Positions 1 through 19,100 of a DNA stretch of 19,100 bases are shown here, one piece after another; the first letter of the stretch is position 1; each line of letters opens with the position of its first letter. The DNA is from a virus: the UHGV virus genome UHGV-0207576. One strand, written 5' to 3'. Below the pieces are notes generated by a model. It was not told the origin of the DNA, made no database searches, and was given only the letters and a program-made list of their open reading frames with translations. Made by a program: the position numbers and the translations under genes.

Positions 1-336
1 CTTGGTTTGGGAGAAGCGGCAAAACGGAATGTGGGAACAGGGGAAAATCAGATACCTGATATGTCATCATATGCATCAGGTTCAGGCTGGCGAAAAATGC
101 CAGATGGTTCAATTGAACAGTGGGGACGAATTAGTTTTCCTGGTGAACACGGGCCTGTATCCGCCAATGTTTCATTCCCGATTCCATTTACACAGACACC
201 GGGCATTGTAATTGTGTGCGATGGTGGTTTCGGGGGCGGGAATATGTGGGGGGCGACCAACTGGAGCACTACCGGCTTCATAGCTCACTGCAATTATGGT
301 CTTGAAGGTGGTGCGTTTTTCGCTAAGGGCTGGTAA
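1..336 (+). CDS. Alternative tail-fibre C-terminal variable exon (S'v-like), no own start codon; would be expressed only after inversion fuses it to the constant N-terminal part
   Basis: Frame 1 is open from position 1 ([17 protein letters not shown]...KGW stop at 334-336). Its first codons repeat the LGLGE motif encoded at the crossover site inside the minus-strand fibre gene. Gly-rich C terminus. Confidence 0.55.
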
Positions 337-779
337 TGATGAAATATCTGTACGTAAACAACCTGGCATATCCTTACGAACTTCAGTCTCTTTATGTTGA
401 AAAAGGTGAATGGCCTGAAGAAAAAGGTGTTGATATAGACGAAGTAATTTTCAGGGAATATTTCTATGACACACCACCAGAAGGAAAATACAGATGTGTT
501 GGAGAAGATGGACTGCCTGCATGGGCAGATATTCCTCCACCAACACGTGAAGAACAAATTGCATCAGCCGAAACTAAAAAGCAGCAATTGATTAACCAGG
601 CCAACGAATACATCAACAGTAAACAATGGCCAGGTAAAGCATCAATTGGTCGTCTGAAAGGTGAGGAACTGGTGCAATATAATTTGTGGCTGGATTATCT
701 GGACGCACTGGAACTGGTCGATACTTCCGGTGCGCCAGATATTGAATGGCCTACGCCTCCGGCAGTTCAGGCCAGATGA
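336..779 (+). CDS. Tail fibre assembly protein (U'/Tfa-like), partner of the alternative fibre exon
   Basis: 147 aa; ATG overlaps upstream stop (TAATG); C terminus ...[23 protein letters not shown] resembles the C terminus of the opposite-strand assembly protein; position matches U' of Mu G segment. Confidence 0.65.
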   Translation: MMKYLYVNNLAYPYELQSLYVEKGEWPEEKGVDIDEVIFREYFYDTPPEGKYRCVGEDGLPAWADIPPPTREEQIASAETKKQQLINQANEYINSKQWPGKASIGRLKGEELVQYNLWLDYLDALELVDTSGAPDIEWPTPPAVQAR

Positions 780-1356
780 CGTCCGGCGCTGTGCTGGTAT
801 CTGTTGCCGTCACCACGTCAATGTAATCCAGCACAGTGTTAAGCCGGGTTGTTTCTGCCTGCGTCAGTTTCCGTCCGGCCTTTAATTTCAGCTGAATCAG
901 ACTGATGGAAGCCATTGCAGCATCAATCAGTGACTGGCGCTGTGCTTCTGCCGCGTCTACTGCGGCGCTATGCTGTGCCTCAATATCGGTCACCCATTTC
1001 TCACCATCCCATTTATCGTATGGCGTTAACGGGGCGATAGTGGTCGTATTTTCAGGATAATCACCCGGACCTGTGATTTCTTTCGATTCTCCTGTTTCGG
1101 TGTTATAGACGATTTCACCGCGATGGTCTGGCACATATTCCCATGAGTTTAAATCCATCGAACGGCAGATAGCATAACCCGCCTTATGTGTGCCAGGGGC
1201 ATCTAAACAGGAATATGCAGGGATACCGACACCCACAGCAAGATATTCAGTTGATGCAGAAATATACTCCCGTGTCTCACTGTCATAGTTATAAACGGTA
1301 ATCTCTCCTGCCTTTGTGGCAATAAATTTACTATTCAAGATGGCGTTATACATCAT
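751..1356 (-). CDS. Tail fibre assembly protein (U/Tfa-like)
   Basis: 201 aa; start overlaps fibre gene stop (ATGA); C terminus ...[28 protein letters not shown] parallels the U' C terminus; 3' end overlaps the convergent U' gene by 29 bp. Confidence 0.65.
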
Positions 1357-2183
1357 GCAGCCCTCACAATGTAATTAAATGAAATATTACGTGGGCGTGT
1401 CTCTGCTGCACCGACAATACTGGTTCTCAACCCCGTCGCTGTTCGTTTGTTATTTTTATTTCCTTCAATCAGACAGTTGTAATCATCATTACCAATTAAC
1501 GAATTAGTGGCATCAATACCGTCCGGGGACAAGGCATTAGTTGTAGAACTTAAAGTCAGCATCTCGTCTGAACTTGGAAGATTTTTTAATGGTATTTCAT
1601 TGCGAGAAATACCCGCGTAAAAAAAGGACTCATGCCTGTGCGCTTCAAAAGAGTCATCCTGAAGACTTAGCAAGGCACGTCCCGCATCCACACCACGCCC
1701 GTCATCCCAGCCACGAATAAACTCACCACGTAAATCAGGCAATTTATTTGTCGGATAAGCCTTTGCCAGTTCCGGGTATTCTTCAGCAGAAAAAGCGGCA
1801 CCGTTGCATTTCAGCCAGCCTGTTGGCGGAGTGGCGGAAGGCCACGGAACAGGCACGCCAACGGGTAATGCCGAACCTTCTCCCAAACCAAGGTTTTCGA
1901 GAGCCGTTGGTACTGTGCCGTCCGATTTGATATCGCCAAACGGATTTTTGCGGCTTAACAGCAACGCGCGAAGCGCGGTAAGTAGCTGATCCGTTTTTTT
2001 GGGGTCAGGTTGAATATGTGCACCACCAAGAACATTAAGGAGTTCCTGCTGTAAATCACGGGCTGCCCCCTGCTGATTGTTTAAATAACCAGCAGTCACG
2101 AGGGTTCCTTCTATCCCCTGAGTGGGGTCACCATCATGAAACAATTGATCCGGTGTATTTATCGGGGGCATCAGATTTTGCAT
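1353..2183 (-). CDS. Tail fibre protein (S-like): constant N-terminal ~97 aa outside the invertible segment, variable C-terminal collar-type domain inside it
   Basis: 276 aa; motif PWP...[22 protein letters not shown]...[22 protein letters not shown]...H.H is a typical phage tail collar/fibre signature; the crossover site at 1878-1903 lies in-frame ([13 protein letters not shown]). Confidence 0.75.
1878..1903. other. Serine DNA-invertase crossover site (gix/cix/pix-like), right boundary of invertible segment
   Basis: ttctcccaaacc-aa-ggttttcgagag: a 26-bp imperfect palindrome with central AA, closely resembling Gin/Hin/Cin/Pin recombination sites as recalled (AAACC..GGTTT core); its inner half-site is repeated inverted at window positions 4-15. 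Confidence 0.7.
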
Positions 2184-6941: not shown

Positions 6942-8336
6942 TTAACGGTATTTAAAGGTGCAGTAAGCCAGGATTGCCTTCAGTGCCTGCATATCACCAA
7001 CAAGCTCACCAACACCGAACCCCTCAAGAATTTTCGCCATAGACTCTAGGATTTTGTCCTGCTGGCCTTTGTCTTTTGTTGCTGCCAGACGCTTCTGAAG
7101 CTCCTGATATTGTTTGTTGTTCGCGGTGACTTTATCAGTGAGGCGTGAAAATGCTTCTATCGGATCAATGCCGTTTTCCATAGCTCGGGTCAACGTACCA
7201 GGTAGATCAATACCTTTGCCATCAATCGTGATGCTTTTCGCCCTTGTTGCTGATTCACTACTGAAAAGTTTGGCCAGCAGGTTTACAACGTTATTACCTG
7301 CTTCACTGCTGCTGCCTGCGGCAATCCCTGCGACCTCATTAAATGCCAGTAATTTCTGGAGTCCATCCAGTCCTTTCATTCCGGCGTTACCAGCTAACGC
7401 CATCTGAGGTCCAAGATATTCCGCCATATCCCGTAGCTCAAAATTACCCGCTTTACCTGCTGCGACAGCCATATTAAACATGGCCGGGAGGTCGTCATCT
7501 GTCAGTCCAAATGTTTGTTTAGCTTTGGCCGCCATAGTGACCAGATCGCGTGGAGATGCGCCGGATGCAGTAGCAAATTTCATAATCTGCGGTAAGAGAT
7601 TATTCGCGGTATCCCAGGAAAAAGCGCCGCTGGCCAACATCTCATTCATTGCTTCAGCTGCATCCTCTTTCGTTCCGCCACCATACGTTACCGCCGCGCG
7701 GATACTGTTTTTCAGCTTTTCACGCCCAAACTGCCTGCCTTCCAGACCACCATCACTGAACGCCGTGTTCGCCATCATGCTGAGCTGACGTTCATAACTC
7801 ATTTGATTTCTGACTGGTTGCGTCATAATGGCGGCCCCTGCCATAATTCCGCCGCCTATTGTCACGGCATTCCCGCCAAATGCAGCCGCACGGGCAAAAC
7901 GCCCCCGTTCAGGGATAACAGGCGTTTTCGCCATCTTCATCTGAGCCTGAGTGACGCCATCCAGTTCACGCTTGAGTGCCCGGGCTTTTTCCCGGGTGGC
8001 CTGCATGGCGCGCTCCTGCTCCTGCGCAGATTCAAAACCGGCGCGGGCCAGACGGTTATAGCTGGCAACCGTCTGATAAATTTCACGCCGGATCTCGCGT
8101 TCTGCACGAATACCGAGCGTTTCCCGGGCACGGGCGGCACGCTGTATCTCTTTTGCCGCCTTTTTCGTGCTGTTAACGCTTTCCTGCCCGGTACGCGTCT
8201 GCTCTGCGCCTGCCTTCCGGGTTGCCTTTGTTACACCTTCGGTGGCTTTGATAACCTGTTTTTGTCCCTTTTCCAGAACCTGCGAGGCTTCGTCCTTCGC
8301 AGTCAGGGTCATGCCAACTTTGAAATTACCGGCCAT
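6942..8336 (-). CDS. Tail tape measure protein
   Basis: 464 aa; Ala/Gly-rich, charged coiled-coil N-terminal region, central GGxxxG-type hydrophobic stretch (AAAFGGNAVTIGGGIMAGAAIM), typical tape measure composition; preceded by a chaperone gene with an overlapping alternative frame. Confidence 0.8.
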   Translation of the reverse strand: MAGNFKVGMTLTAKDEASQVLEKGQKQVIKATEGVTKATRKAGAEQTRTGQESVNSTKKAAKEIQRAARARETLGIRAEREIRREIYQTVASYNRLARAGFESAQEQERAMQATREKARALKRELDGVTQAQMKMAKTPVIPERGRFARAAAFGGNAVTIGGGIMAGAAIMTQPVRNQMSYERQLSMMANTAFSDGGLEGRQFGREKLKNSIRAAVTYGGGTKEDAAEAMNEMLASGAFSWDTANNLLPQIMKFATASGASPRDLVTMAAKAKQTFGLTDDDLPAMFNMAVAAGKAGNFELRDMAEYLGPQMALAGNAGMKGLDGLQKLLAFNEVAGIAAGSSSEAGNNVVNLLAKLFSSESATRAKSITIDGKGIDLPGTLTRAMENGIDPIEAFSRLTDKVTANNKQYQELQKRLAATKDKGQQDKILESMAKILEGFGVGELVGDMQALKAILAYCTFKYR

Positions 8337-8498: not shown

Positions 8499-8789
8499 TT
8501 ATTCCGTAGCGCCCGAGGATAAGGACTGCGAGCCGGAGTCCGGCGAGCCGGGATTCCCGCCGCTCCGCTTTACCTTCAGGACGTTGCGTGATGCCAGCAG
8601 AATATTAAAATCTTCCGGCGTCATGTTGTCGTGCAACAGCTCCGCCGTCAGTTCTTCCTGCGGAATATCCCCCAGACGGACCAGCGTTGCCGCCATTACC
8701 GCACAGCGGTAGTAATAATCCGCCGCGAAGCCGTCCACTGTCTGAAAGCGTTCTTCAGTTTCTTCCAGTGCCTGCCCGTTATCACGCAT
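8499..8789 (-). CDS. Tail assembly chaperone (P2 gpE / Mu gp41-like), probably lacking its original N terminus
   Basis: 96 aa from ATG; the frame stays open 29 codons upstream (TGIATQTGELSDGLVFNGTIHKNFELRLPV) with a gpE-like pattern but no start codon; acidic LTAELLHDNMTPEDFNILL region; lies directly upstream of tape measure. Confidence 0.5.
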   Translation of the reverse strand: MRDNGQALEETEERFQTVDGFAADYYYRCAVMAATLVRLGDIPQEELTAELLHDNMTPEDFNILLASRNVLKVKRSGGNPGSPDSGSQSLSSGATE

Positions 8790-9262
8790 GACCGGCAGAC
8801 GCAGCTCAAAGTTTTTATGAATGGTGCCGTTAAAAACCAGACCATCGGACAGTTCGCCGGTCTGTGTAGCGATACCTGTTCATAGAAACGCACTGCTTTA
8901 ACTAGTCCTTCCGGCACTACCGACGCTGGCGGGGCAGCATAAAGCTCATGCATTCCATCAGATAGCGAGTGACCTACATACTCACTGAACCCATCAACAC
9001 ACATGCATCCATCTTCAACAATGCATGACGCTACTGGCAAAGCCACCTCCCGTGCCTCCAGTTCTTCTGCCCACTCCCGAAGCCCTTCAATCTCACCATT
9101 ACGAGCTATCAGATCGCGACACAGTCTTTCGTTTTCATCCAGCAACGCCTGCACAACCTCCGGCGTAGCCGCAGCATGAAAAGCCTGTAGGTTCTGCCAC
9201 GTCGTATCCCCCTTCGCGGCCTCTGCCACCTCACGCAGTGCCTGATAGTTAATCTCGCTCAC
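8696..9262 (-). pseudogene. ead/Ea22-like protein, N-terminal ~120 aa intact, then runs across a probable deletion/recombination junction (~8880-8900) into out-of-frame chaperone sequence
   Basis: GTG start with AGGAGG RBS; N terminus MSEINYQALREVAEAAKGDTTWQNLQAFHAAATPEVVQALLDENERL matches the Ea22-like N-terminal pattern as recalled; C-terminal ~65 aa is Cys/Trp/Arg-rich and overlaps the chaperone frame. Confidence 0.45.
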
Positions 9263-9518
9263 TGGTTGCCTCCTTTTTCCATGTTTTCAGACTTTCACCA
9301 CAGAACGGGCAAAAACACATGGCAACACCACGACCGACATATTGGCCGGAGTGAATTTGAGCAATGTCTAAGCCTGGCTCGCCGGTGTTTATATTCACGC
9401 GTTCCGGGATAAATATGCCTTTACTCTTAAAGGCTGGATTTCCATATTCGAGTGCTTTTGCCAGTACCGCACACGGTTCTATCTGATTGCCATTAATTCG
9501 ACACTTTAATTCACTCAC
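9249..9518 (-). CDS. Hypothetical small protein with Cys motifs (possible zinc-binding)
   Basis: Likely GTG start at 9516-9518 (GGGAGG RBS, GTGA overlap with upstream stop); contains C..C and CFCPFC motifs. Confidence 0.4.
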   Translation of the reverse strand: MSELKCRINGNQIEPCAVLAKALEYGNPAFKSKGIFIPERVNINTGEPGLDIAQIHSGQYVGRGVAMCFCPFCGESLKTWKKEATSERD

Positions 9519-9679
9519 TTCAACACCTCCCGACGACGTTCCTGAAGTTCCAGCATTGCAGCCCGGAAATCCTGCCACCATTCCTCATCGGCAACGGGGG
9601 AGTTCCGCTCCAGCACCTTGTCCGCATCGGCAATCAGTCTGGTCAGACTCTTATCGCTTATTCTGGTTTGCTGACTCAC
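9515..9679 (-). CDS. Hypothetical small protein
   Basis: Probable GTG start at 9677-9679 preceded by AGGAGA RBS (longest ORF reaches 9718 on TTG); charged, helical-looking 53-67 aa. Confidence 0.35.
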   Translation of the reverse strand: MSQQTRISDKSLTRLIADADKVLERNSPVADEEWWQDFRAAMLELQERRREVLK

Positions 9680-9965
9680 TGGTTGTCTCCTGTTCATTTT
9701 TTTCATTCCGGTACACAAGAATTACGATATCTCCCCGGGTAATTACGCGTGCGGGGTCGCCCTGTTGCATATGGTCAATATCAAAAGCGTCATTAAACGC
9801 ATTTAGCGCCTTCGCGCGCTTGTCTTTACAACGATGTTTTTCACGCTGCTTAAAGAGCGAAGAAATCAACCACCTGAATGACATAAAAGTGATATAGCCA
9901 TAACCGATAAGCGCCAGACCTGTATTCATGGCTACATCTATCGTTATCGTTTTATCAATGACCAT
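9651..9965 (-). CDS. Hypothetical small membrane protein (one predicted TM helix)
   Basis: 104 aa; strong AGGAGG RBS 7 nt upstream of ATG; hydrophobic stretch NTGLALIGYGYITFMSFRWLISSLF followed by basic segment; start overlaps upstream stop. Confidence 0.5.
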   Translation of the reverse strand: MVIDKTITIDVAMNTGLALIGYGYITFMSFRWLISSLFKQREKHRCKDKRAKALNAFNDAFDIDHMQQGDPARVITRGDIVILVYRNEKNEQETTSESANQNKR

Positions 9966-10185
9966 TGCCAGCCTCCTGTTTTGCCACTTTAAACGCCCGC
10001 AACATCGGGACCGTTTTACCGCTGATGACAGTGTTCATAACAATACCGATTCCACTGTGATGTAACGCTCCCGGTGCAACAAACAGCGCAGCATCTACAA
10101 CTCTGAAGTAACGGTGGAACTCCCAGAACCAACAAGAAATAGTGATAGTTGCGGTGACCCCATGGTCATAAAATTCAATTTTCAT
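9955..10185 (-). CDS. Hypothetical small protein
   Basis: 76 aa; ATGA start/stop overlap with upstream gene (translational coupling). Confidence 0.4.
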   Translation of the reverse strand: MKIEFYDHGVTATITISCWFWEFHRYFRVVDAALFVAPGALHHSGIGIVMNTVISGKTVPMLRAFKVAKQEAGNGH

Positions 10186-10409
10186 TTGCAGTTAAACCTT
10201 CTCTTATGACGTTCTACGGCAGCCTTCATATTGTTGTGCACGGTTCTTTTAATAATCCGACGTCCCACACTGTCATAGAACCGCCACCGGGAAGCCCCCG
10301 GATATCCGGGGAACTCAACCACCGCGCTACCGTCATTCATCCTGTATTCGTGGCGTTCTCCGGGCGGCTGGTATATTGCTTCGGTAACACTAAGAAGTTT
10401 AAAAGCCAT
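10182..10409 (-). CDS. Hypothetical small protein
   Basis: 75 aa; strong GGAGGG RBS ~7 nt upstream of ATG; 2 nt after upstream stop. Confidence 0.45.
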   Translation of the reverse strand: MAFKLLSVTEAIYQPPGERHEYRMNDGSAVVEFPGYPGASRWRFYDSVGRRIIKRTVHNNMKAAVERHKRRFNCK

Positions 10410-10411
10410 CG

Positions 10412-11122
10412 TTACACCCTCCCCAGTGCCAGCGGTCTGTTGCTCTGACCATTAACCCCCTGATGCAGCCTGGCGTTCTTCCCGGCGATAAAACCGGCAG
10501 TAGCGGCAAACTCTGCACCCCGACACGCTTTAGCTGTGCGCATATCCCCGTCGCGCAGTCCCTTAGTGCTGTGCAGGTTCTTTCTGTAAAGCTCAAGGCG
10601 GCTTTTTTCTTCCGGGGAGACGTCATACACCGCAATGACATCACGGGCACCAAAGACCCAGCCTTCGCAGAACTGGTCGCCACGGGCTACCCGCGTGGAC
10701 GGACCACAACGTTTGCAGTGTTTATCCTGATATTTCTTGCGCTCTGCCATCATCTGACGGGAAAGCACATCAAACGCGTAAGCCGCGATTTCCGGGCGGC
10801 TGTCAGGACCATAAAAACGCACGTAACGTTTGAGTGAACCAGAAGCCCGGTATTCGCCGGAGATGTAACACTCGACACCGAAGGCTTTACAGACCAGGTC
10901 ACACAGGATGTGCATATAACGCGGCGGCGTACTGGCGTCACTCGGCGCACCCGCGCTGGCAGCTTCCTGAATGTCGAACAATTCCGCGTCGTTTTCGCTG
11001 ATACCATGCTGGCGCATATAAGCCTGGGCTTTTGCAATAGCGTTAGCGGCTTCTTCCGGGCTTGATGTTCCTCTGGCAAGGCGTAACAGTTTTTTGATTT
11101 TGGCAATGTATTTATCTTTCAT
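10412..11122 (-). CDS. Phage accessory protein with DUF2786-like N-terminal helical motif
   Basis: 236 aa; N terminus KIKKLLRLARGTSSPEEAANAIAKAQAYMRQHGI matches the DUF2786-type pattern common in prophage early regions (from memory, not searched). Confidence 0.5.
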   Translation of the reverse strand: MKDKYIAKIKKLLRLARGTSSPEEAANAIAKAQAYMRQHGISENDAELFDIQEAASAGAPSDASTPPRYMHILCDLVCKAFGVECYISGEYRASGSLKRYVRFYGPDSRPEIAAYAFDVLSRQMMAERKKYQDKHCKRCGPSTRVARGDQFCEGWVFGARDVIAVYDVSPEEKSRLELYRKNLHSTKGLRDGDMRTAKACRGAEFAATAGFIAGKNARLHQGVNGQSNRPLALGRV

Positions 11123-11210
11123 GGTTGTAACTCATTGTTTTTGATCAACTTATAACCACAAAACACTTGTCATAATCGCTGCCCCAACATACCCAATCAG
11201 GAGTTAAAAA

Positions 11211-11429
11211 ATGATTGATGATGAAATTGCGGCAGCAATTACTGCTAACAAAGCTGCGTGGAGCTTTCTGGTTAAACAGCTTTCAGAAAATGGCTGTCTG
11301 AACCTCAGCGCCCTGGATTCTGAATTACGCAACTTCCAGCACGGCCTTCAGGAACGTGGGGAGTTCGTTCTGGCTGCGGCGCTGGATGAACATCTGCTGT
11401 CGATTGAGAACTGGTCGCAAGACGATTAA
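11211..11429 (+). CDS. Hypothetical small acidic protein, transcribed opposite to all flanking phage genes
   Basis: 72 aa; AGGAG RBS 7 nt upstream of ATG; followed by two hairpin terminators; net acidic. Confidence 0.5.
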   Translation: MIDDEIAAAITANKAAWSFLVKQLSENGCLNLSALDSELRNFQHGLQERGEFVLAAALDEHLLSIENWSQDD

Positions 11430-11451
11430 AACAAACGATTGTCAGATTAAT

Positions 11452-11471
11452 TTCGCGGGCGAATTTTTTTT
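11452..11471 (+). terminator. Weak intrinsic terminator after the plus-strand small gene
   Basis: Short GC hairpin ttcgcgggcgaa followed by a run of 8 T. Confidence 0.35.
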
Positions 11472-11507
11472 GCTTAGCAATATTCATAAATAAACTTCCT
11501 CAGATTC

Positions 11508-11545
11508 AGGCGTAAGCCAGCCCCTGCGGGTTTACGCCTGTTTTA
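11508..11545 (+). terminator. Strong hairpin terminator at the boundary between early-gene block and accessory block
   Basis: aggcgtaagccagcccctgcgggtttacgcct forms a ~12-bp stem with one mismatch, followed by gtttt. Confidence 0.5.
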
Positions 11546-11569
11546 AATAACAATTAAAAACAAATTAAA

Positions 11570-11761
11570 TTAATGCGGTGCTTTCAGTGTTTCGACTTTA
11601 ACGAAATAAGGCTCGACATTAATTTCAACCACACAACCACATTTAAAATCTCTGGCAGGTGCAACAGTTTTTACCACCCGACCACCACGCACTGCCCGAT
11701 GTGCAATGTGCATGAAGCGAGTCCCTGGCGGATATAGCTGATTAAAGCGTTTCGCGTTCAT
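11570..11761 (-). CDS. Hypothetical small protein (last gene of early operon)
   Basis: 63 aa ORF; overlaps upstream gene end, real start may be internal Met at ~11713. Confidence 0.35.
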   Translation of the reverse strand: MNAKRFNQLYPPGTRFMHIAHRAVRGGRVVKTVAPARDFKCGCVVEINVEPYFVKVETLKAPH

Positions 11762-11975
11762 GAGGCGGCTTCCATCTTTTCAGGTGAGCATTGGCACAGA
11801 ACTCTGCCCGGTGTTCCGCCCAGATGCGGCGCAGGGTACTACACGGGCTTTGTGCTGCCTTACGCCACAGTTTTTCAGCTTCGGCATAATCGCCGCGTTG
11901 TTCTGCTCTGGACGCGCCCAGCGAATACGCTGCGCAACGGTTCCCGGCCCTGTACTCTTTGATATCCTGATGCAT
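11742..11975 (-). CDS. Small regulator-like protein (ANR-family-like pattern)
   Basis: About 77 aa from ATG at 11973-11975, directly after upstream stop at 11977-11979; pattern ...AAYSLGASRAEQRGDYAEAEKLWRKAAQ...W...C recalls ANR-type small regulators. Confidence 0.4.
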   Translation of the reverse strand: MHQDIKEYRAGNRCAAYSLGASRAEQRGDYAEAEKLWRKAAQSPCSTLRRIWAEHRAEFCANAHLKRWKPPHERETL

Positions 11976-11976
11976 G

Positions 11977-12621
11977 TTAAACCCCTGCAATATCAAGCGG
12001 GATTGCGCGGTATTCAGCAGAATCACCGACGCGCTCATACACGCGGATATAGCTTTTGCTGCCAATTACCTGGACGGCTTCACCAATCAGTTTCATGGCG
12101 TTATCCCAGCGTTCCTCCGTAATATCGAGACGACGCAGAGCCAGAACGCGCCCGGTGTTAATGTTGCCTTCCTTGTCCGTGCTGAATGCTTCACTGATGA
12201 TGGCTTTAATTTCAGGGCGCGCTCCTTCCGTCCAGTCAGCCAGACAGTCATCAATCAGTGCCTTCGCGGTCTGAATGCGTTCATCAAGCGCGATACGGTC
12301 CTGCATGGCGCGCTGAATCTTGTAACGCCCGTCAAAGCTGTAAAGTGTGATATTCCCTTTTTTACCGCCTTTCACAGCGCCGTATTTCTCCGCCGACAGG
12401 TCAATAAATGCCTGAATATCACCAAACGCACGCAGTTTCAGTTCACGCAGTGAGGCAGAGGCAGCAATCACCATCTCCACAAGCTCACCGACCAGCTGCT
12501 CACGGTCGCGGTCAATATCTTTGATAAGACTTTCAGGCGTCATCACACCACGGGCATCAACCCAGTAGCCTTCCTGCACTTTATTTTTTGTATATTGCTT
12601 AACTTTATTTTCAGTCGTCAT
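11977..12621 (-). CDS. Mu-like early-region protein (DUF3164-like)
   Basis: 214 aa; position downstream of the B-like gene in the semi-essential early region; family assignment from memory of the protein pattern, not searched. Confidence 0.45.
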   Translation of the reverse strand: MTTENKVKQYTKNKVQEGYWVDARGVMTPESLIKDIDRDREQLVGELVEMVIAASASLRELKLRAFGDIQAFIDLSAEKYGAVKGGKKGNITLYSFDGRYKIQRAMQDRIALDERIQTAKALIDDCLADWTEGARPEIKAIISEAFSTDKEGNINTGRVLALRRLDITEERWDNAMKLIGEAVQVIGSKSYIRVYERVGDSAEYRAIPLDIAGV

Positions 12622-12650
12622 AATTAAATTACCTCAGTGATATTTACAGA

Positions 12651-12866
12651 TTAATGTGTGTTATGTGCGCGAGGCGCAACATTTTCAGAAAAAAGATTCA
12701 CGCCGTTATAGTCATTTCTGAGCGTTTCCTTGATAGCATCATGTAATCTTGTTGCCACCTGAAACTCCTTTTCGGAAGCTCCGTCCTTCGAATAACTCCC
12801 CGTGGTCTGGGTTAAAACACAGCCTTTTTCATCGGTATAGATAATTACTTCTAACTTAACCGCCAT
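12651..12866 (-). CDS. Hypothetical early-region protein
   Basis: 71 aa ORF in the early operon. Confidence 0.4.
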   Translation of the reverse strand: MAVKLEVIIYTDEKGCVLTQTTGSYSKDGASEKEFQVATRLHDAIKETLRNDYNGVNLFSENVAPRAHNTH

Positions 12867-12878
12867 TCTGATTTCCTC

Positions 12879-13118
12879 TTATTGCCATACGACGGTGCAG
12901 CCGTCGATACAGGACGTTTTCACCACGCGGCGCAGGCCGCTGAATGTCTGGATGATTTCCGTTACCGGCCATACAGGGCCGCCCACGGGCGGGCAGGCAT
13001 AAACCACAGGTAAACGGTGATGTTGCCCAGTTACGCGACCGCCGGTGGTGTGGATGGCCACACGGGCACGGGAACGGACGGCGTTAATGGTCTGCTTGTC
13101 CATCATCTTGTTCTCCAT
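12879..13118 (-). CDS. Hypothetical early-region protein
   Basis: 79 aa ORF immediately downstream of the B-like gene. Confidence 0.4.
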   Translation of the reverse strand: MENKMMDKQTINAVRSRARVAIHTTGGRVTGQHHRLPVVYACPPVGGPVWPVTEIIQTFSGLRRVVKTSCIDGCTVVWQ

Positions 13119-14011
13119 CAGTGAATTAACATTTCTGCGAATTTATCAATGGCCTGCACACTGACCGGTGCATCGCTGATATCACAAATCCGGTACACAC
13201 CGCGAGCCAGTTTGAACAGGCGGCGGGCATTACCCAGTGAGCGTGCGTAGAGCGCCTCGCTGATTTCCGGTTCTGCTGCTTCCGGCATCAGCCCGGTAGC
13301 TATCTGGTTAAAATCTTCCTGCGACAGCGTATCGCCCAGGTTAAGCGCCAGCGCCACACGGCTGTATAACTGGGCGAACTCACCGCGACGTCCCTTGAGG
13401 TTAATCAGAAGGCGTGGCATACCCGCCAGGACAATCCCGATACCCGCTTTGTCATGCAGACGGCGCAGAACCTCCAGTGCGCGATAGGGGAGCAGTTCAG
13501 CCTCGTCCACCATCAGCAGGCGACCGGAATCACGCAGTTCTCGCACACATGCATCAATCAGTTCGTGGATATTGCCGCGAACTTTTACCCCCAGCTGGCG
13601 GCACAGCTCCTCAAGCAGTGTTCTGGCTGTATAGCCCGGGTCGGCTTCAATCAGGACCGCATCCCGGTTTCTGGCGGCGTATTCACGCAGAATCATTGTT
13701 TTGCCAAGACCTGCCGCGCCATACAGTACGCAGATTTCACATTCCAGGTGAGCATAGGCCAACACCTCCAGTCCTTTGGCAGCCATACCGGTGGCAACAA
13801 ATTTCGCTTTAATACGGCGGCTGTTTTCCTTTTCCCGCTCACGGGTCACAAAGGCAGAAATGCGTTCTTCAATATCAGCCATATCGCCCTGATATTTACC
13901 CTGTAAATACTGGTTGATAACGGCGCTGCTACGACCAATAGCACGGGCGACGTGGGTTTGCGTATAGCCGCGACGGGCCATTACGTCATTTAATTGCGTA
14001 ATTAAACTCAT
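13118..14011 (-). CDS. MuB-like transposition target-DNA activator (AAA+ ATPase with N-terminal HTH)
   Basis: 297 aa; N-terminal HTH (YTQTHVARAIGRSSAVINQYLQGK), Walker A GAAGLGKT, Walker B LLMVDEAE; lies directly after the transposase gene as in Mu. Confidence 0.85.
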   Translation of the reverse strand: MSLITQLNDVMARRGYTQTHVARAIGRSSAVINQYLQGKYQGDMADIEERISAFVTREREKENSRRIKAKFVATGMAAKGLEVLAYAHLECEICVLYGAAGLGKTMILREYAARNRDAVLIEADPGYTARTLLEELCRQLGVKVRGNIHELIDACVRELRDSGRLLMVDEAELLPYRALEVLRRLHDKAGIGIVLAGMPRLLINLKGRRGEFAQLYSRVALALNLGDTLSQEDFNQIATGLMPEAAEPEISEALYARSLGNARRLFKLARGVYRICDISDAPVSVQAIDKFAEMLIH

Positions 14012-14029
14012 AATTAAATACCTTTTAAA

Positions 14030-16072
14030 TTAACGGTTGTTTGTGCCGTTTTTCTTTAAATTGCGTTCGCGTTCAGATGCGAATAAATAAAGTTCTTCTT
14101 TTTCCTTTTTCTCCAGGCGTTCCAGTCCATATCCCAGATTAAAGTCAGGCTTCTGCGTAATGGCCGGGGTAAGCTCGCGTTTAGCCTCTTCGATTTTCTG
14201 CGTGGCCCGTGCAATGCGGCCCTTGACGCGTTTCTCCAGTTTTTGTTCGATAACTGGTTTAGCGAAGGCATCAACCTTGTTACCGTTCCAGATGGCATCG
14301 CAGATATAAGAGCCATCAGCCCGCCGGACAATGACGCTGTTTGCATCATGAATATCGTAACTGACCCTGACTTCATTCCCGTGCTCTGCGGCCAGATCAT
14401 ATGAGTAATAAATATTGTTGAATAACTGAATTTCCCCGCGAAATGTTTTGCGCGTCACTTCCGGCCTGAACATTTCATGCAGTTCTTCCGGCGACAGGAA
14501 ATCAATTTCAACATTCTGCTCTTTTATCAGTTTCCGGCGATACGCTGCCGGGCTGTAATGCTCGCCATCCTCTTTGCGAGGAAGGCTGCTGTGTGGCCGG
14601 TTGTTATAGCGTCTGACCTCCAGCTCTATGGCTGCCATCAGTTGCTCAAAGGTAGGGATTTCATCCCTCGCCTTAACCTGCCGTTTTGTCAGCTCTTTCC
14701 CTTTGTGGGTGGCCTTAATGGCTGACTGCATAATCCGTTGCTGCATCATTACGGTTTCCTTGTCTGCATCCCTTGCGCAGTACGTTTGGAAACTCAGGGC
14801 CACGTCTTTGGGTATTTCCTTGTTAACCCTTTCAATCACCCCGCGCCCCTGCGGGTTACCTGGTATCCCCGTGTGATGTTCCACACCCAGACGGGGCAGA
14901 ATCCCGGTAATATCGGCATCAAGCACCAGGTTTTTTTCGCCGCCCCCGTTATCGGAGTAATAAATCAGCGGTATCCCGTGCTGTGCCATGCCGTAACGTA
15001 ACGCATCAGCAACGGCTATCACGTTCTCCGACAGGGACAGTGACCAGCCCACAATAAAGCGTTGTCCTGCATCCATAACCAGCGTCACTTCTGGCCGGAA
15101 AATATTGCCGGTCAGGGGGTTAAACGCGGTCATTTTCATACAGTGACCATCCCCGACCCATACCGCATTAACCGGTAATGATGTCCACTCGCGCCGCACA
15201 AAGGGATTGAGCGAACGCCAGGCTGAACCTGTGGAGCGGAAACGCTCTTTAACAATCACCGGGACGCTGCTTAACACCCGTCTTACTGCGTGAACTGAAG
15301 GCAGTGCCGCCAGCATTCCCGCATCGTTCGCGTGTTTTTCATGCCACCAGGCTGAAAACTCGCGATACGCATATTCAACGGTCGGGCGCTTCCATGAGCG
15401 ATAGAACATAAAGAAATCGCTCAACCACCAGACCTGCTCCCACGGTGTTCCCTTATGATGACCGGGAGCCAGTAACGCCAGTAACTGATTGGCATCACCG
15501 CGCGCCATCACCCAGCTGGAGTACCAACTATCCAGGCTGCCTGTGCTGACACCGGTTCGCTTTCCCTGACGTGCATTTGCAGTATTAGCTGCTTCGATAA
15601 TGCGGTCAGGTAACGCCCCCATGCGCACACCATCAACGATGTGCTTTAACGCGGCCTTCCTTGTCATTCCGGCGTATTCACGCAGTTTATGCACTTCAGT
15701 AGCCAGCAATATCCGCGCATCAGCGATGGCCTTTTGCTTGTCAGTCAGTGCCTGGACTTCGCGTAATGCCAGTTCCGGGCATTTGACCATCACCTCCAGT
15801 TCATCGCGAACGGCGACGTTTTTAACTGCCTTCTGCTCAACCACGGCGGGCAGTTGCGTATCTTCCAGGACCTGATGGGTCAGGCGCTTACGTAAAACTT
15901 TCTGCGCTTCAGCGGGCAGGCAGTCGATGTGATACTCGAATGCTTTGGTGCCTTCACGCTTGCGCTTCCATTCCGGGTGCGTCTCTGTGATCCGATTGAG
16001 CGTCCAGCGCACCCCCTGAACTGTACCGGGCAAACCAGGAAGACCGGCCAGCTCATTGGCTGAATAAAACAT
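14030..16072 (-). CDS. MuA-like DDE transposase
   Basis: 680 aa; N terminus LAGLPGLPGTVQGVRW...TKAFEYHIDCLPAEAQ parallels the MuA end-binding winged-helix domain (ANLPGLPKTSAGV...KAIEYNANSLPVEAK); central DDE region with VWVGDGH; TAATG overlap with Ner-like gene. Confidence 0.9.
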   Translation of the reverse strand: MFYSANELAGLPGLPGTVQGVRWTLNRITETHPEWKRKREGTKAFEYHIDCLPAEAQKVLRKRLTHQVLEDTQLPAVVEQKAVKNVAVRDELEVMVKCPELALREVQALTDKQKAIADARILLATEVHKLREYAGMTRKAALKHIVDGVRMGALPDRIIEAANTANARQGKRTGVSTGSLDSWYSSWVMARGDANQLLALLAPGHHKGTPWEQVWWLSDFFMFYRSWKRPTVEYAYREFSAWWHEKHANDAGMLAALPSVHAVRRVLSSVPVIVKERFRSTGSAWRSLNPFVRREWTSLPVNAVWVGDGHCMKMTAFNPLTGNIFRPEVTLVMDAGQRFIVGWSLSLSENVIAVADALRYGMAQHGIPLIYYSDNGGGEKNLVLDADITGILPRLGVEHHTGIPGNPQGRGVIERVNKEIPKDVALSFQTYCARDADKETVMMQQRIMQSAIKATHKGKELTKRQVKARDEIPTFEQLMAAIELEVRRYNNRPHSSLPRKEDGEHYSPAAYRRKLIKEQNVEIDFLSPEELHEMFRPEVTRKTFRGEIQLFNNIYYSYDLAAEHGNEVRVSYDIHDANSVIVRRADGSYICDAIWNGNKVDAFAKPVIEQKLEKRVKGRIARATQKIEEAKRELTPAITQKPDFNLGYGLERLEKKEKEELYLFASERERNLKKNGTNNR

Positions 16073-16308
16073 TACGCCGCCTTACTGGCATACCGGCTTG
16101 GCCAGATCTCCGCAGGTTCCACACCAATAGCATCGGCTATGATGCGTTCATATTTAGGGCATGAGCGATACAGTGCATTTTTTAAAGAGTCTTTTTTTAG
16201 ACCAGCGCGTTCAGAAAGTTCACGCAATGTAAAACCTTTGGTGTGCACAGCGGCAACGATGTACTCGCGGTGCCAGTCTTTGTTCATTACTTCATTTCTA
16301 ACCATCAT
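16072..16308 (-). CDS. Ner-like DNA-binding regulator (Ner/Nlp family)
   Basis: About 78 aa from ATGATG at 16303-16308 with AAGG RBS; WHR...LSERAGLKKDSLKNALYRSCPKYERIIADAIGVEPAEIWPSRY closely parallels Mu Ner. Confidence 0.8.
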   Translation of the reverse strand: MMVRNEVMNKDWHREYIVAAVHTKGFTLRELSERAGLKKDSLKNALYRSCPKYERIIADAIGVEPAEIWPSRYASKAA

Positions 16309-16490
16309 TAGGTTACCCTTAAAAGTTATCCGTGCGGATAACACCGCCGTGTTATCCCTTCGGATATAAGTATTGATCCATATATAGCTCATGTAAAGCA
16401 AAAATAGCCCTTTCTTTGTATTTTCTTTTTGCTTTTGGTCTTTATATGGTTTTTGTAATTAAAATCAATAAGTTATAGAGGAAAGAAAAA
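16309..16490. promoter_or_regulatory. Divergent early control region (Pe/Pc-like) with candidate operators
   Basis: Two palindromes, GTTATCC-N4-GGATAAC at 16325-16342 and GTTATCC-N4-GGATA at 16351-16366, centres 26 bp apart; CTTT-rich repeats 16411-16436; TTTACA and TATA-like hexamers on both strands. Confidence 0.5.
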
Positions 16491-17138
16491 ATGACTAGAA
16501 ATGATGATGCTTTTTCTTTTGTCGACCGGGGAAAAGAAAGTTTCAGAGAGCGTTTAGTAAAGCTGATAGGTAACCGTAGTGTCAGAACTGCTGCGAGTGA
16601 TTGGGGAATCCCCCCTTCAACCTTAAACAACTACATTCATAAAGGAACAGAGCCTTCTTTTAAAATAGCTTGCCTTATCTCAGATAAAGAACAAGTGAGC
16701 TTAAATTGGCTCGCTTACGGTGAGGAACCCATCGCCAAAGAAAGTTCTCTATCAAATCAAACAGCGCAGCCTTCTCCCGATATTACAAACGAGCTAGTTA
16801 ACGAGTTATTGAAAAGAGCGTCCACAGAAGATAAGGAACAGTTGATAAGTGCAATATGCGATATGGGCATTAAAGGAATCTTGGAACGCCTACAGCAACC
16901 CACCAGGCAAACTAAGCAAGCCGATAGCGAACTTGAGGAGCAAAGAAAGGCCATTCAAAGCCTGAACATCAGGCAATCGCTTAAAGACGCTGTTTGCATG
17001 GCATTAGCTGGCGATGAGGAAAATGACAAAGAGATTTTGCGCCGCGCCAAAGCCATTTTCTGTGCTGGAACACCAGGTGATCGCGTTCCCGTCACACCGG
17101 AGCAAGAAACTAAGCCTGTAAACAAGAAATCAGCATAA
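16491..17138 (+). CDS. Prophage repressor (c-like) with CI-type HTH domain
   Basis: 215 aa; N-terminal ...SDWGIPPSTLNNYIHKGTEPSFKIACLISDKEQVSLNWLAYGE matches the 186/P2 CI-repressor HTH pattern; divergent from ner-A-B and pointing to the prophage end, as Mu c does. Confidence 0.75.
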   Translation: MTRNDDAFSFVDRGKESFRERLVKLIGNRSVRTAASDWGIPPSTLNNYIHKGTEPSFKIACLISDKEQVSLNWLAYGEEPIAKESSLSNQTAQPSPDITNELVNELLKRASTEDKEQLISAICDMGIKGILERLQQPTRQTKQADSELEEQRKAIQSLNIRQSLKDAVCMALAGDEENDKEILRRAKAIFCAGTPGDRVPVTPEQETKPVNKKSA

Positions 17139-17298
17139 GCGCCTCGTTTTGGCGGGGCGTGTGCTGTTAGCTAATCAGCAATAACCACAACAAAACCGAA
17201 CACAACAGATGAGAACAAATTGAGGAAAACGGGTAAGGATAAAACTCTTTTTAAAAGCATTTAAAACCCGTTAAGTTTGTAGCAGAACCAGATCAAAA

Positions 17299-17450
17299 GC
17301 GCCCAGAAAAAAGCGCAAAAAAAAGCGTTTTTGGTCATTTCTCACAAATCCGCCCAGAATCACGCTAAATCACCACACCCCGCGCCACACAAGGCTTGCC
17401 GGTTCTACCAGGCTGCACTAACTCCGCCCAGAATTGATCACTACCCCACA
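17299..17450 (-). repeat. Prophage left end (attL-like) with three direct transposase-binding-type repeats
   Basis: Plus-strand cores (g/c)cgcccagaa at 17299-17308, 17350-17359 and 17424-17433 (TTCTGGGCG in element orientation); spacing resembles Mu L3, L2, L1; sequence ends ...cca-ca at 17448-17450. Confidence 0.55.
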
Positions 17451-18025
17451 ATTCCCGGAAGATTTAGTGGATTAAAAAGAAGATTGATATTAAGCATTGA
17501 TATTATCGAAGGAAACTTTAGGAGACTCTCATTTTTTTGAATCGCAGCAAAAATGCTCCCGACAGGATGTATATAATTTTGTTCATAGTATATAGTCCTT
17601 AAATAGTGAATAACCAACCTGTTTTTTATACTGATCAAATTGGTCATTTTTTCTGGGCGAAATACAGAAGTGACATCCATTCCAATAAAATCTTTATTTA
17701 TACCTCTTATCCGAATTTCACTACCATAAAGATTATTAATTATTACTCTATATTTAACATTGTCCTGCAGATATGTATCAAAACTAAGTGCTGGCGCTCC
17801 TGGCTTTGAGGCATCATAGTTAATGTTAGACATATAGGCAATCATATAATTAAAGTTTGATTCTGCTATTTCATCGCAGTCACATTGACCCGTTGATATA
17901 AAGAAAGTGAGTGCTGTCATAGTAGACTGCAGCCTTTCTTTAAAAGAGTCGAAAGCCAGGCTTTTAATATTTAAATCACCATAATTACTCTGTATTAAGT
18001 TTGTAGAAAACATCTCCCGCCTCAT
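17441..18025 (-). pseudogene. AT-rich host ORF apparently interrupted at its 3' end by the prophage insertion (possibly ydjO-like, unverified)
   Basis: 194-codon ORF begins 277 bp from cedA and reads straight into the predicted prophage terminus, stopping 3 codons inside it; markedly AT-rich compared with the prophage. Confidence 0.45.
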
Positions 18026-18271
18026 ATTGTTAACAAAATTATTATCTCATTTAAATCTAAGTCATTTACAATATAAGTTTAAGAGCGACGCCACAGGATG
18101 AACTATCAAAAATAGCTCATCATGATTAGCAAAACTTAATCATTTTAAAATAAATAAACAATTAAAGAAAAAAGATCACTTATTTATAGCAATAGATCGT
18201 CAAAGGCAGCTTTTTGTTACAGGTGGTTTGAATGAATGTAGCAACGAAATACAGAATTTCAGGTCATGTAA

Positions 18272-18290
18272 CTCCCGGCAAAACCGGGAG
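18272..18290 (-). terminator. Hairpin downstream of cedA (possible terminator)
   Basis: ctcccgg-caaaa-ccgggag, 7-bp stem, 12 nt after the cedA stop; no clear T tract. Confidence 0.3.
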
Positions 18291-18301
18291 GTATGTAATC
18301 C

Positions 18302-18544
18302 TTACTCAGTCACTTCCCCTTCCTGGCGGATCTGATTTGCCCAACGTTGGGCAGATTCAGGCACAGTAAACGCCGGTGAGCGCAGAAATGACTCTCCCAT
18401 CAGTACAAACGCAACATATTTGCCACGCAGCATCCAGACATCACGAAACGAATCCATCTTTATCGCATGTTCTGGCGGCGCGGGTTCCGTGCGTGGGACA
18501 TAGCTAATAATCTGGCGGTTTTGCTGGCGGAGCGGTTTCTTCAT
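18302..18544 (-). CDS. cedA: Cell division activator CedA
   Basis: Translation MKKPLRQQNRQIISYVPRTEPAPPEHAIKMDSFRDVWMLRGKYVAFVLMGESFLRSPAFTVPESAQRWANQIRQEGEVTE matches E. coli CedA as I recall it (80 aa); an upstream in-frame ATG at 18565 would give 87 aa. Confidence 0.85.
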   Translation of the reverse strand: MKKPLRQQNRQIISYVPRTEPAPPEHAIKMDSFRDVWMLRGKYVAFVLMGESFLRSPAFTVPESAQRWANQIRQEGEVTE

Positions 18545-18747
18545 TACTGGCTTCACTAAACGCATATTAAAAATCAGAAAAACTGTAGTTTAGCCGATTT
18601 AGCCCCTGTACGTCCCGCTTTGCGTGTATTTCATAACACCGTTTCCAGAATAGTCTCCGAAGCGGGATCTGGCTGGTGGTCTATAGTTAGAGAGTTTTTT
18701 GACCAAAACAGCGGCCCTTTCAGTAATAAATTAAGGAGACGAGTTCA

Positions 18748-19100
18748 ATGTCGCAACATAACGAAAAGAACCCACATCAGCACCAGTCACCACTACACGA
18801 TTCCAGCGAAGCGAAACCGGGGATGGACTCACTGGCACCTGAGGACGGCTCTCATCGTCCAGCGGCTGAACCAACACCGCCAGGTGCACAACCTACCGCC
18901 CCAGGGAGCCTGAAAGCCCCTGATACGCGTAACGAAAAACTTAATTCTCTGGAAGACGTACGCAAAGGCAGTGAAAATTATGCGCTGACCACTAATCAGG
19001 GCGTGCGCATCGCCGACGATCAAAACTCACTGCGTGCCGGTAGCCGTGGTCCAACGCTGCTGGAAGATTTTATTCTGCGCGAGAAAATCACCCACTTTGA
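18748..19100 (+). CDS. katE: Catalase HPII, N-terminal part (continues beyond window)
   Basis: Translation [117 protein letters not shown] matches the E. coli KatE N terminus; divergent from cedA as in E. coli. Confidence 0.9.

Follow-up and report, generated by a model that had tools for sequence, protein, structure and literature searches.

In the B3-like transposable phage Fc02, RNA-seq has shown that a single pE transcript runs, after derepression, from ner through A, B and a set of accessory genes to gemA and mor, and that this operon is silent in the lysogen; the same phage expresses in lysogeny a ~7.9-kDa exclusion protein, olg1, which is encoded antisense to early gene 10 (PMC9936078). 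The Mu-like phages of Pseudomonas have a core/accessory architecture in which regions of plasticity, located mainly in the left arm, contain open reading frames (ORFs) of 34-100 codons (Cazares et al. 2014, PMC4378225). In phage lambda, the genes of the exo-xis region shift the lysis-lysogeny balance (PMC7093339, PMC3824215). The present analysis concerns a block of small, closely packed genes at positions 9249-11429 of a 19,100-nucleotide (nt) stretch of the virus genome UHGV-0207576, the whole of which is referred to below as the window. The block is another example of the accessory early regions known from Mu-like phages and lies in a defective prophage. More specifically, we read it, with a probability of about 70%, as the distal end, for the most part accessory, of the early (Pe) operon in a Mu-like Escherichia coli prophage, of which the window holds a deleted, defective copy.

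The block is located downstream of the genes for the repressor c, Ner and the transposition proteins A and B and shares its strand with the last two, and nearly all genes of the window lie on this minus strand. Positions 8873-17451 are 97.7% identical to an intact Mu-like prophage of E2348/69, a standard laboratory strain of enteropathogenic E. coli, which holds the whole region intact, and over 9249-11429 the identity reaches 99.9%. At ~17451 the identity to the E2348/69 prophage ends and the host genes ydjO, cedA and katE lie beyond, which marks the end of the prophage. In E2348/69 the Ead/Ea22-like gene at the far end of the block is followed by three small genes, gp16/GemA, Mor, holins, an endolysin, terminase, portal and head genes. 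GemA and Mor also follow the region in RIVM_C036569, in phage JBD25 and in a Vibrio prophage, and are missing from the window through a deletion at 8873/8874. In phage order, the genes that come before the block are c, ner, A, B, a Kil homologue, a 71-amino-acid (aa) gene, a DUF3164 gene, an ANR-family gene and a 63-aa gene (p63), and the intergenic gaps and overlaps range from -29 to +29 nt throughout ner to p63 and throughout the minus-strand genes of the block. A consensus scan found no sigma-70-like promoter on the minus strand between 8400 and 13200, and a single site on the other strand, against 4.6 expected by chance; a position weight matrix (PWM) scan of the spacer upstream of the block gave scores no better than the window-wide background. 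A reading made from the letters alone (the sequence-only reading) had proposed that the block forms one co-translated operon. Its tight coupling stands, whereas the idea of a self-contained operon or island does not, since the early operon probably continues into it from ner and its strand has no recognisable promoter between 8400 and 13200. A separate operon was likewise rejected as a candidate because the promoter scans found none on the strand of the block.

The block had also been placed between the transposition and tail modules. This is literally so in the window, but the functional neighbourhood is another, since a deletion junction (blastn breakpoints at 8873/8874, with a 2-nt overlap) separates the block from the tail genes. 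Identity to E2348/69 ends at 8873, and from 8874 leftwards the sequence is that of the tail region of other Mu-like prophages, such as CFS3292, beginning 8 nt inside the tail-chaperone gene. The missing DNA amounts to ~16.6 kb (10,760 + 1,116 + 4,750 nt) and, by comparison with the intact E2348/69 and CFS3292 prophages, comprised the rest of the accessory slot, GemA, Mor, and the lysis, packaging, head, sheath and tube genes; in the intact CFS3292 the tube, sheath and head genes precede the tail chaperone. Thus, the block adjoins tail genes because of the ~16.6-kb deletion, and its actual neighbours are early genes upstream and GemA and Mor downstream. No complete E. coli genome contains the whole window. 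The repressor, ner, A, B and Kil genes are full length and the first six genes of the block are intact; as these six are 99.9% identical to the intact E2348/69 copy, the deletion is recent. A second deletion of ~1.37 kb relative to CFS3292, at 6963-6966, fuses the tape-measure and DNA-circularisation genes, leaving a tape-measure ORF of 464 aa in place of 757 aa in CFS3292, and the tail module is therefore defective as well.

Six minus-strand genes, numbered g1 to g6 along that strand, fill positions 9249-11122, and a seventh, g7, begins at 9262 on the same strand. The successive spacings from g1 to g7 are +2, -4, -11, -29, -4 and -14 nt, and the Shine-Dalgarno (SD) sites of g2 to g7 read, in order, GGGAGGG, AGAAGG, AGGAGG, AGGAG, GGGAGG and AGGAGG. 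Coordinates, overlaps and SD sites bear out the layout reported by the sequence-only reading, namely small genes with overlapping stop and start codons and strong SD sites. Each of g1 to g7 matches a PHROG family from end to end, with E-values from 1.5e-70 to 4e-29, and Pfam families score above their curated cut-offs in g1 (DUF2786 and DUF7168), g4 (DUF4752) and g7 (Ead_Ea22). The full-length PHROG matches, together with the Pfam scores, show that these are real genes rather than chance ORFs. The description of the genes as uncharacterised and without a structural role is upheld by the lack of any Pfam, PDB or fold match to structural proteins; confident homology to replication or morphogenesis proteins, named beforehand as grounds for abandoning that description, was looked for by sequence and by fold and was found for none of them. 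PDB sequence searches with g1 to g7 and with the reverse gene m72 described below gave no match, NCBIfam recognised only the ANR-family gene outside the block, and no functional study was found in the literature on DUF2786, DUF4752 or DUF3164.

The largest gene of the block, g1 (10412-11122, minus strand), encodes a basic protein of 236 aa with an isoelectric point (pI) of 9.4. The DUF2786-like protein noticed earlier is confirmed here, as both PF10979 (DUF2786; 49.1 bits against a cut-off of 23.9) and PF23771 (DUF7168; 102.2 bits against 25.5) score above their gathering thresholds. Homologues of the DUF2786 protein were detected by tblastn in 170 phage records, all at less than 60% identity; ~155 of these are Pseudomonas and Ralstonia records, and the single occurrences include Alteromonadaceae phage B23 and Curvibacter phage TJ1. 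JBD25, the Pseudomonas match that was checked, is a transposable phage. JBD25, a Vibrio parahaemolyticus prophage and a contig labelled Martelella all keep the order DUF3164, some small genes, DUF2786, variable genes, GemA, Mor; Mu has neither DUF3164 nor DUF2786. The largest gene of the block, previously counted among its candidate accessory genes, is instead a fixed landmark, found in the same order in these three. Residues R122, Q123, R195 and W155 of the DUF2786 protein are invariant. PDB sequence searches revealed no solved structural relative of g1, and its BFVD matches are all uncharacterised or DUF2786 proteins. The g1 product is a basic early protein whose place is conserved in transposable phages and whose fold resembles no solved structure.

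Genes g2 to g7, all on the minus strand, fill a plastic slot between the DUF2786 gene and GemA, and members of the same families are found in lambdoid phages (nin and int-proximal regions) as well as in P22-like and P1/P7-like ones. The slot content after DUF2786 differs among nine related enterobacterial (E. coli-type) prophages. In these relatives g1 is usually followed by g2/g3-like genes; DUF4752 or alternative genes come next, and after these Ead/Ea22-like genes or others. Genes g4 to g7 are absent or replaced in related prophages. This is a mosaic pattern of the "region of genomic plasticity" kind described in PMC4378225. Because their presence varies among relatives, the block proteins are presumably non-essential. 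The accessory character suggested for the whole block therefore holds for the variable slot, whose families are common to the accessory early regions of other phages, but not for the DUF2786 gene, which is conserved in place.

Within the slot, g2 (10182-10409; 75 aa, basic), which starts 2 nt past the g1 stop codon, matches phrog_9400 (1.6e-39, 74/74 positions) and has no Pfam or PDB match; PGAP leaves it without annotation in RefSeq E2348/69, and it is called in the metagenomic copy L011. The moderately hydrophobic g3 product (9955-10185; 76 aa), whose gene overlaps g2 by ATGA, belongs to phrog_1001 (4.2e-29) and has homologues in Fels-1 and in Klebsiella temperate phages. The 104-aa protein encoded by g4 (9651-9965) matches PF15944 with an E-value of 1.5e-38 (131.1 bits against a cut-off of 27, profile positions 1-84 of 84), and its homologues occur in 95 phage records, mostly Shiga toxin (Stx)-converting lambdoid and P22-like phages, once beside EaF. 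This gene had been called a single-pass membrane protein. An N-terminal hydrophobic helix is indeed present, but the best 19-residue Kyte-Doolittle window, at residues 16-34, scores only 1.24, which leaves the helix a possible membrane anchor. An acidic protein of 54 aa is encoded by g5 (9515-9679; GTG start), which matches phrog_14672 (1.5e-31), is annotated in RefSeq E2348/69 and shares ~91% DNA identity with a stretch of ~48-kb non-mobilizable E. coli plasmids; its sequence suggests a helical fold. For g6 (9249-9518; 89 aa, GTG start, GTGA overlap), the cysteine motif noted previously is substantiated by an alignment of 35 homologues in which C6, C16, C70 and C73 (C-x9-C ... C-x2-C) are invariant, a pattern that probably binds zinc. 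The gene matches phrog_4030 (3e-29), and its homologues adjoin ead-like genes in Rac-SA53, P7 (upf87.4, in a C1-controlled operon), D6 and Salmonella phages; Foldseek found no fold match for it, the AlphaFold2 model being poor (pLDDT 64). Finally, g7 (8696-9262) is an Ead/Ea22-like gene (PF13935, 1.2e-15, residues 2-96, 58.7 bits against a cut-off of 27) in a chimeric ORF of 188 aa, which is intact for its first ~129 codons and ends, over its C-terminal third, in out-of-frame tail-chaperone sequence.

In reverse orientation within the early operon lies m72 (11211-11429, plus strand), which encodes an acidic protein of 72 aa (pI 4.28) and whose GC content of 0.49 is not unusual. An exhaustive HMMER scan of 1.84 billion (1.84e9) representatives returned eight matches, among them P0172, P0173, P0175 and P0176, which are 75-77 aa long and 37-61% identical over their full length. 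These four divergent relatives belong to four separate Mu-like prophages, and each is encoded opposite to its neighbours, with DUF3164 and small genes on one side and DUF2786 on the other. Divergence of the m72 frame by codon position over the five lineages is 0.48/0.31/0.62. These relatives and the codon divergence indicate that the plus-strand gene is real. Previously described as sitting at the upstream edge of the block, the gene proves to be conserved, and always reverse-oriented, in this prophage clade. The family is a small one: a word-indexed search found four clusters only, IMG/VR holds two contigs only, the GTDB species-representative genomes hold none, and there is no match in Pfam, PHROG, PADLOC or PDB (the last including a family profile search).

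Opposite the 3' two-thirds of m72 runs an antisense ORF of 60 aa (11305-11487, minus strand; SD GAGGAAG). In 5/5 lineages a minus-strand SD site and ATG directly after a conserved hairpin open an ORF, 60-81 aa long, that always has the same relative frame. The antisense ORF shows coding-like divergence over its first 16 codons (0.54/0.34/0.61), and these may be translated; in the overlap only the plus frame looks coding. Among 5426 complete E. coli genomes, m72 is intact in eight. In a further ~50 complete E. coli genomes a 169-bp segment, 11123-11291, bounded by GGTTGT/GGCTGT repeats, is deleted, so that the m72 start and the spacer are gone, and DUF2786 starts 13 nt after the antisense ORF, which PGAP calls in place of m72; RefSeq thus annotates opposite strands of the same DNA in different genomes. 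Of the recent substitutions at m72, 9/11 are non-synonymous in the plus frame and 9/15 fall on third positions of the minus frame. The possibility that m72 is spurious and the antisense ORF the true gene is favoured by the PGAP calls in relatives and by this substitution pattern; it was rejected in view of the 37-61% identical full-length relatives and the codon-position divergence, which marks the plus frame as coding. On sequence evidence, m72 is a real gene whose position and direction are conserved, and most E. coli copies of it seem to be decaying.

The spacers around m72 contain further conserved elements. In the 88-nt spacer between g1 and m72 is the palindrome TTGATCAA (11141-11148) with a GATC (Dam) site, and an alignment of this spacer from five divergent lineages, in which the flanking proteins share only 37-61% identity, shows GATCA without variation; the palindrome may be a methylation-sensitive or protein-binding control site. 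A candidate extended -10-like element, TGTCATAAT (11168-11176, plus strand), precedes the m72 start codon by ~35 nt. Its PWM score of 5.5 is not above the window-wide background, and a -10-like ATAAT is found at the same place in other lineages. On the other side of the gene, 23 nt past its stop codon, the sequence can be read as a terminator-like short stem (TTCG CGGG CGAA) followed by T8 (11452-11471, plus strand), which is not conserved in other lineages. Farther on is a conserved GC-rich hairpin, GGCGTAAGCC...GGGTTTACGCC (11507-11540, plus strand), with a folding energy of -24 kcal/mol (z = -5.1) on the plus strand and -19.9 (z = -2.2) on the minus strand. Two of its 14 pairs show compensatory changes, its G-U pairs fit a plus-strand RNA, and only four Ts follow it. 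Of the earlier description of a divergent acidic 72-aa gene with its own terminators, the acidic coding gene stands, but the short stem is not conserved and the hairpin has a short T run. Rfam searches of the whole window at gathering thresholds, and of 8800-12000 at E <= 1, returned nothing but an "Lnt" match below threshold, located on the hairpin (26.9 bits against 55).

The early region of related prophages has one or two copies of the hairpin, each followed at once by the SD site and start codon of the next early gene. The hairpin is part of an ~80-bp intercistronic element (11483-11569 in the window) composed of an AT-rich TTTAAA stretch, the hairpin GGCGTAAGCC...GGGTTTACGCC, and an SD site with a start codon. 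Second copies lie at 4795-4824 in L003, 3839-3867 in L004, 4462-4491 in L005, 3845-3873 in L006, and 2913-2942 and 3526-3555 in L007, all related prophages, and such copies flank optional cassettes; the window has a single copy and no cassette. The cassettes, at the p63-DUF2786 site, consist of a 181-aa gene (phrog_7741, no Pfam match) with or without a DUF7448 gene (128 aa) and a 121-aa orphan, and occupy 3779-4775 in L003, 3273-3818 in L004, 3446-4442 in L005 and 2527-3505 in L007. The element could be taken for a recombination boundary, for a site of RNA processing or termination, or for both, and the window appears to have lost its cassette by recombination between two copies.

The remaining early genes are arranged as follows. 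The repressor gene c (16491-17138, plus strand; Pfam Phage_CI_repr) is divergent from the early operon, and a Pe-like promoter identified by a promoter scan (16369-16397, minus strand) is upstream of ner (16072-16308; HTH_35). The transposase gene A (14030-16072; Mu-transpos_C/HTH_Tnp_Mu_1) and the gene for the AAA+ protein B (13118-14011; AAA_22) come next, and the Kil homologue (12879-13103; phrog_2679, 5.7e-35) directly follows B. Then come the 71-aa gene (p71; 12651-12866), the DUF3164 gene (11977-12621; PF11363, 2.8e-79), the ANR-family gene (11742-11975; NCBIfam NF033650, 1.3e-15) and p63 (11570-11761; phrog_5591), all of them, from ner onwards, on the minus strand; phrog_7438 and phrog_846 also gave matches among the genes from Kil to p63.

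By analogy to Mu and Fc02, we infer transcript structure, timing and functional class from this observed arrangement. The c repressor would hold Pe shut, so that the minus-strand genes of the block would be silent in the lysogen. Derepression would produce a single long transcript of ner, A, B, Kil, DUF3164, DUF2786 and g2 to g7, which in intact relatives would run on to GemA and Mor, and the overlapping stop and start codons with their strong SD sites would couple translation along this early mRNA. Facing the opposite way, with a candidate promoter and a conserved downstream hairpin, m72 could be made in the lysogen independently of Pe. The likeliest account of the block genes is that they encode early proteins, non-essential and produced only on derepression, a statement of class and timing. 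Similar to Mu Kil, GemA and the lambda exo-xis proteins, g2 to g7 might tune host physiology or the lysis-lysogeny balance. A defence function, which the sequence-only reading had listed among the candidates, is not borne out: a search of ten proteins against PADLOC-DB v2 gave no match below E = 0.003, the only hit being g2 with "E2" (E = 0.0033, 15 bits, 37 residues), and genes in a repressed operon should stay silent in the lysogen. As defence must act in the lysogen, genes locked into such an operon are unlikely to form a classical defence system. A toxin-antitoxin pair was also considered and rejected, there being no family matches and no two-gene cassette with its own promoter. The anti-defence and host-takeover functions also listed are possible, yet no result speaks specifically for either.

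Several points weigh against this account of the block. For the single-transcript model, the grounds are consensus scans and the analogy to Mu and Fc02. With its convergent gene and strong hairpin, the 447-nt stretch 11123-11569 breaks the tight packing; transcription from upstream could be weakened there before it reaches the block, or the block could have a promoter that the scans did not detect. Mu has no homologue of any block gene by phmmer, so that the likeness to its semi-essential region is positional only. Proteins with the DUF2786 fold also occur in the lytic phages phiM12, PhiW-14 and MTx, and hence there is no tie to transposition. "Host modulation" is a class and not a mechanism, no partner, ligand or activity being indicated for any of the seven proteins. 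Moreover, the prophage is defective in this strain, and its genes may no longer matter.

The same early genes can be given other roles. One or more of g2 to g6, or the DUF2786 protein, could act early to inhibit host immunity, such as restriction, RecBCD-type nucleases or abortive-infection sensors. The genes are small, translationally coupled members of an early operon, their slot is highly variable among close relatives in the usual pattern of an arms race, their families are common to unrelated temperate phage types of the same hosts, and, as this prophage has no Mu-type Gam, another protein may protect its DNA ends. However, a variable slot and early timing would be just as expected of any dispensable early function, the DUF2786 gene is too conserved in position and too widespread for a typical arms-race gene, and no likeness to characterised anti-defence proteins was found in Pfam, NCBIfam, PHROGs or PDB, none of which is a dedicated anti-defence library; we consider such a role possible but unlikely. 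It is also doubtful that the DUF2786/DUF7168 protein, rather than modulating the host, is a DNA- or RNA-handling replication factor that works with DUF3164, here in replicative transposition. Downstream of A and B it is invariably linked to DUF3164 in Pseudomonas and Vibrio phages, the Martelella-labelled contig and E. coli prophages, and its basic character, its invariant arginine, glutamine and tryptophan residues and its spread over lytic and temperate phages would suit such a factor, but Mu transposes without it, and Pfam, NCBIfam and PDB searches revealed no nuclease, helicase, primase or recombinase motif. Loss of the late regulators and most morphogenesis genes could mean that the block is decaying DNA without current function, and the two deletions, the chimeric g7 and the decay of m72 in most relatives agree with this. 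Yet g1 to g6 are intact and almost identical to the E2348/69 copy, the deletion is recent, the genes from the repressor to Kil are full length, and the argument concerns this strain only, not what the genes do; this is the least probable of the readings.

The reverse gene raises a different possibility, that m72 is expressed in the lysogen from its own promoter and either excludes superinfecting phages or damps early read-through by convergent transcription, the antisense ORF and the hairpin being parts of the same module. Conservation of its orientation and position over five divergent lineages, the -10-like element and invariant GATCA of the upstream spacer, the downstream hairpin with G-U pairs fitting a plus-strand RNA, and the antisense ORF kept open in the same frame in every lineage all point this way, and there is precedent in the olg1/gene 10 pair of Fc02 (PMC9936078) and in the likewise reverse-oriented gp15 in the early region of Mu. 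Against it, the promoter score does not rise above background, the gene is intact in so few complete E. coli genomes and cut by the 169-bp deletion in ~50 others, its recent substitutions are nearly all non-synonymous, suggesting relaxed selection, it has no detectable homology to olg1 or any characterised protein, and the Fc02 pair is located elsewhere, beside the repressor. A lysogen-expressed function of this kind is rather unlikely. A more speculative version, to which we give less credence still, unites m72, the antisense ORF, the GATC palindrome and the hairpin in one lysogen-expressed module of one enterobacterial Mu-like clade, which would be a Dam-sensitive gate on distal early read-through or an exclusion or immunity factor like olg1/gene 10, and separately takes DUF2786/DUF7168 for a widespread phage early protein with a fold without solved counterpart.

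Other parts of the window and of its relatives showed the following. At 1-2200 the tail-fibre and tail-fibre-assembly ORFs face each other (7-779, plus strand; 751-2183, minus strand), as they do in CFS3292; this resembles the invertible G-segment of Mu, in which case the invertase would lie outside the window. The host flank at 17452-19100 is the ydjO-cedA-katE region, an insertion site other than that of the closely related E2348/69 prophage, which is beside a truncated eutC. A low-GC (0.33) ORF of 194 aa at 17441-18025 has no Pfam match, and a similarity search lists ydjO, cedA and katE over the flank. In L021, a distantly related Mu-like prophage, genes with type VI secretion system (T6SS) Hcp and Tlde1 domains are present at 1325-2183 between the early region and the lysis genes, and look like toxin cargo in a transposable phage.

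With the block read as the accessory end of a Mu-type early operon, an apparent mystery island beside tail genes is accounted for, and the case warns against taking the two sides of a deletion junction for functional neighbours. Current understanding is not overturned; the value of the analysis is in narrowing where to look. DUF2786/DUF7168 and DUF3164 form a positionally fixed pair, without structural assignment, in transposable phages of Pseudomonas, Vibrio and E. coli, and are worth experiment. The slot after DUF2786 is where this clade exchanges small early genes with lambdoid and P1-like phages, and the conserved reverse gene m72 offers a cheap test case for lysogen-expressed functions in an otherwise silent operon.

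Among the known systems, the semi-essential early region of Mu (kil, gam, gp6-gp15 and gemA, from B to mor) has the same place as the block, after c, ner, A and B, on the same strand and, in intact relatives, ahead of GemA and Mor. As in Mu, a Kil homologue comes first and many small, tightly packed ORFs follow, and the small reverse-oriented gp15 in the early region of Mu is matched here by m72. Unlike Mu, the prophage has block genes without detectable Mu homologue and lacks a Mu-type Gam, and its clade carries DUF3164 and DUF2786 like the Mu-likes of Pseudomonas and Vibrio. With the Pseudomonas phages (PMC4378225) it shares conserved core genes interspersed with slots of 34-100-codon ORFs. 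JBD25 carries this DUF3164-DUF2786 pair too (2.7e-78 and 1.3e-30), and variable genes, then GemA and Mor, come after it. Like the pE operon of Fc02 (PMC9936078), the block would be shut off in the lysogen and, once derepressed, transcribed as a single unit. In contrast to the Pseudomonas Mu-likes, the slot genes here belong to enterobacterial families, and no anti-CRISPR, Tip or Aqs1-like genes were recognised among them.

The gene m72 can be set beside two further systems. Like olg1 and gene 10 of Fc02, it is a small reverse gene antisense to an early-operon ORF of a transposable phage, here as read from sequence; unlike that pair, which is next to the repressor, it lies between DUF3164 and DUF2786, and the exhaustive HMMER scan, which found no olg1 homology, returned only the 75-aa family at this locus. 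Like phage morons, it stands between two operon genes on the opposite strand, and around it are AT-rich spacers, with a -10-like element before the gene and a hairpin after it. The score of TGTCATAAT does not exceed background though the -10-like element is conserved, and the hairpin is strong and conserved with only four Ts. A sporadic moron insert would differ in that the position of m72 is conserved over 37-61% protein identity, its GC content is unremarkable and its promoter is a candidate only.

The accessory early regions of lambdoid phages (lambda exo-xis with Ea22, P22 ea and the Rac-like nin-type regions) and the C1-controlled upf operon of P7 have the families of g3, g4, g6 and g7 in common with the block. 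The C-terminal domain of lambda Ea22, Orf63 and Ea8.5 have no sequence match among the block proteins; the likeness seen is one of families. These regions, like the block, are early and non-essential and consist of overlapping small genes; unlike them, the genes described here are carried by a transposable phage and would be under Pe rather than under pL/pR or C1.

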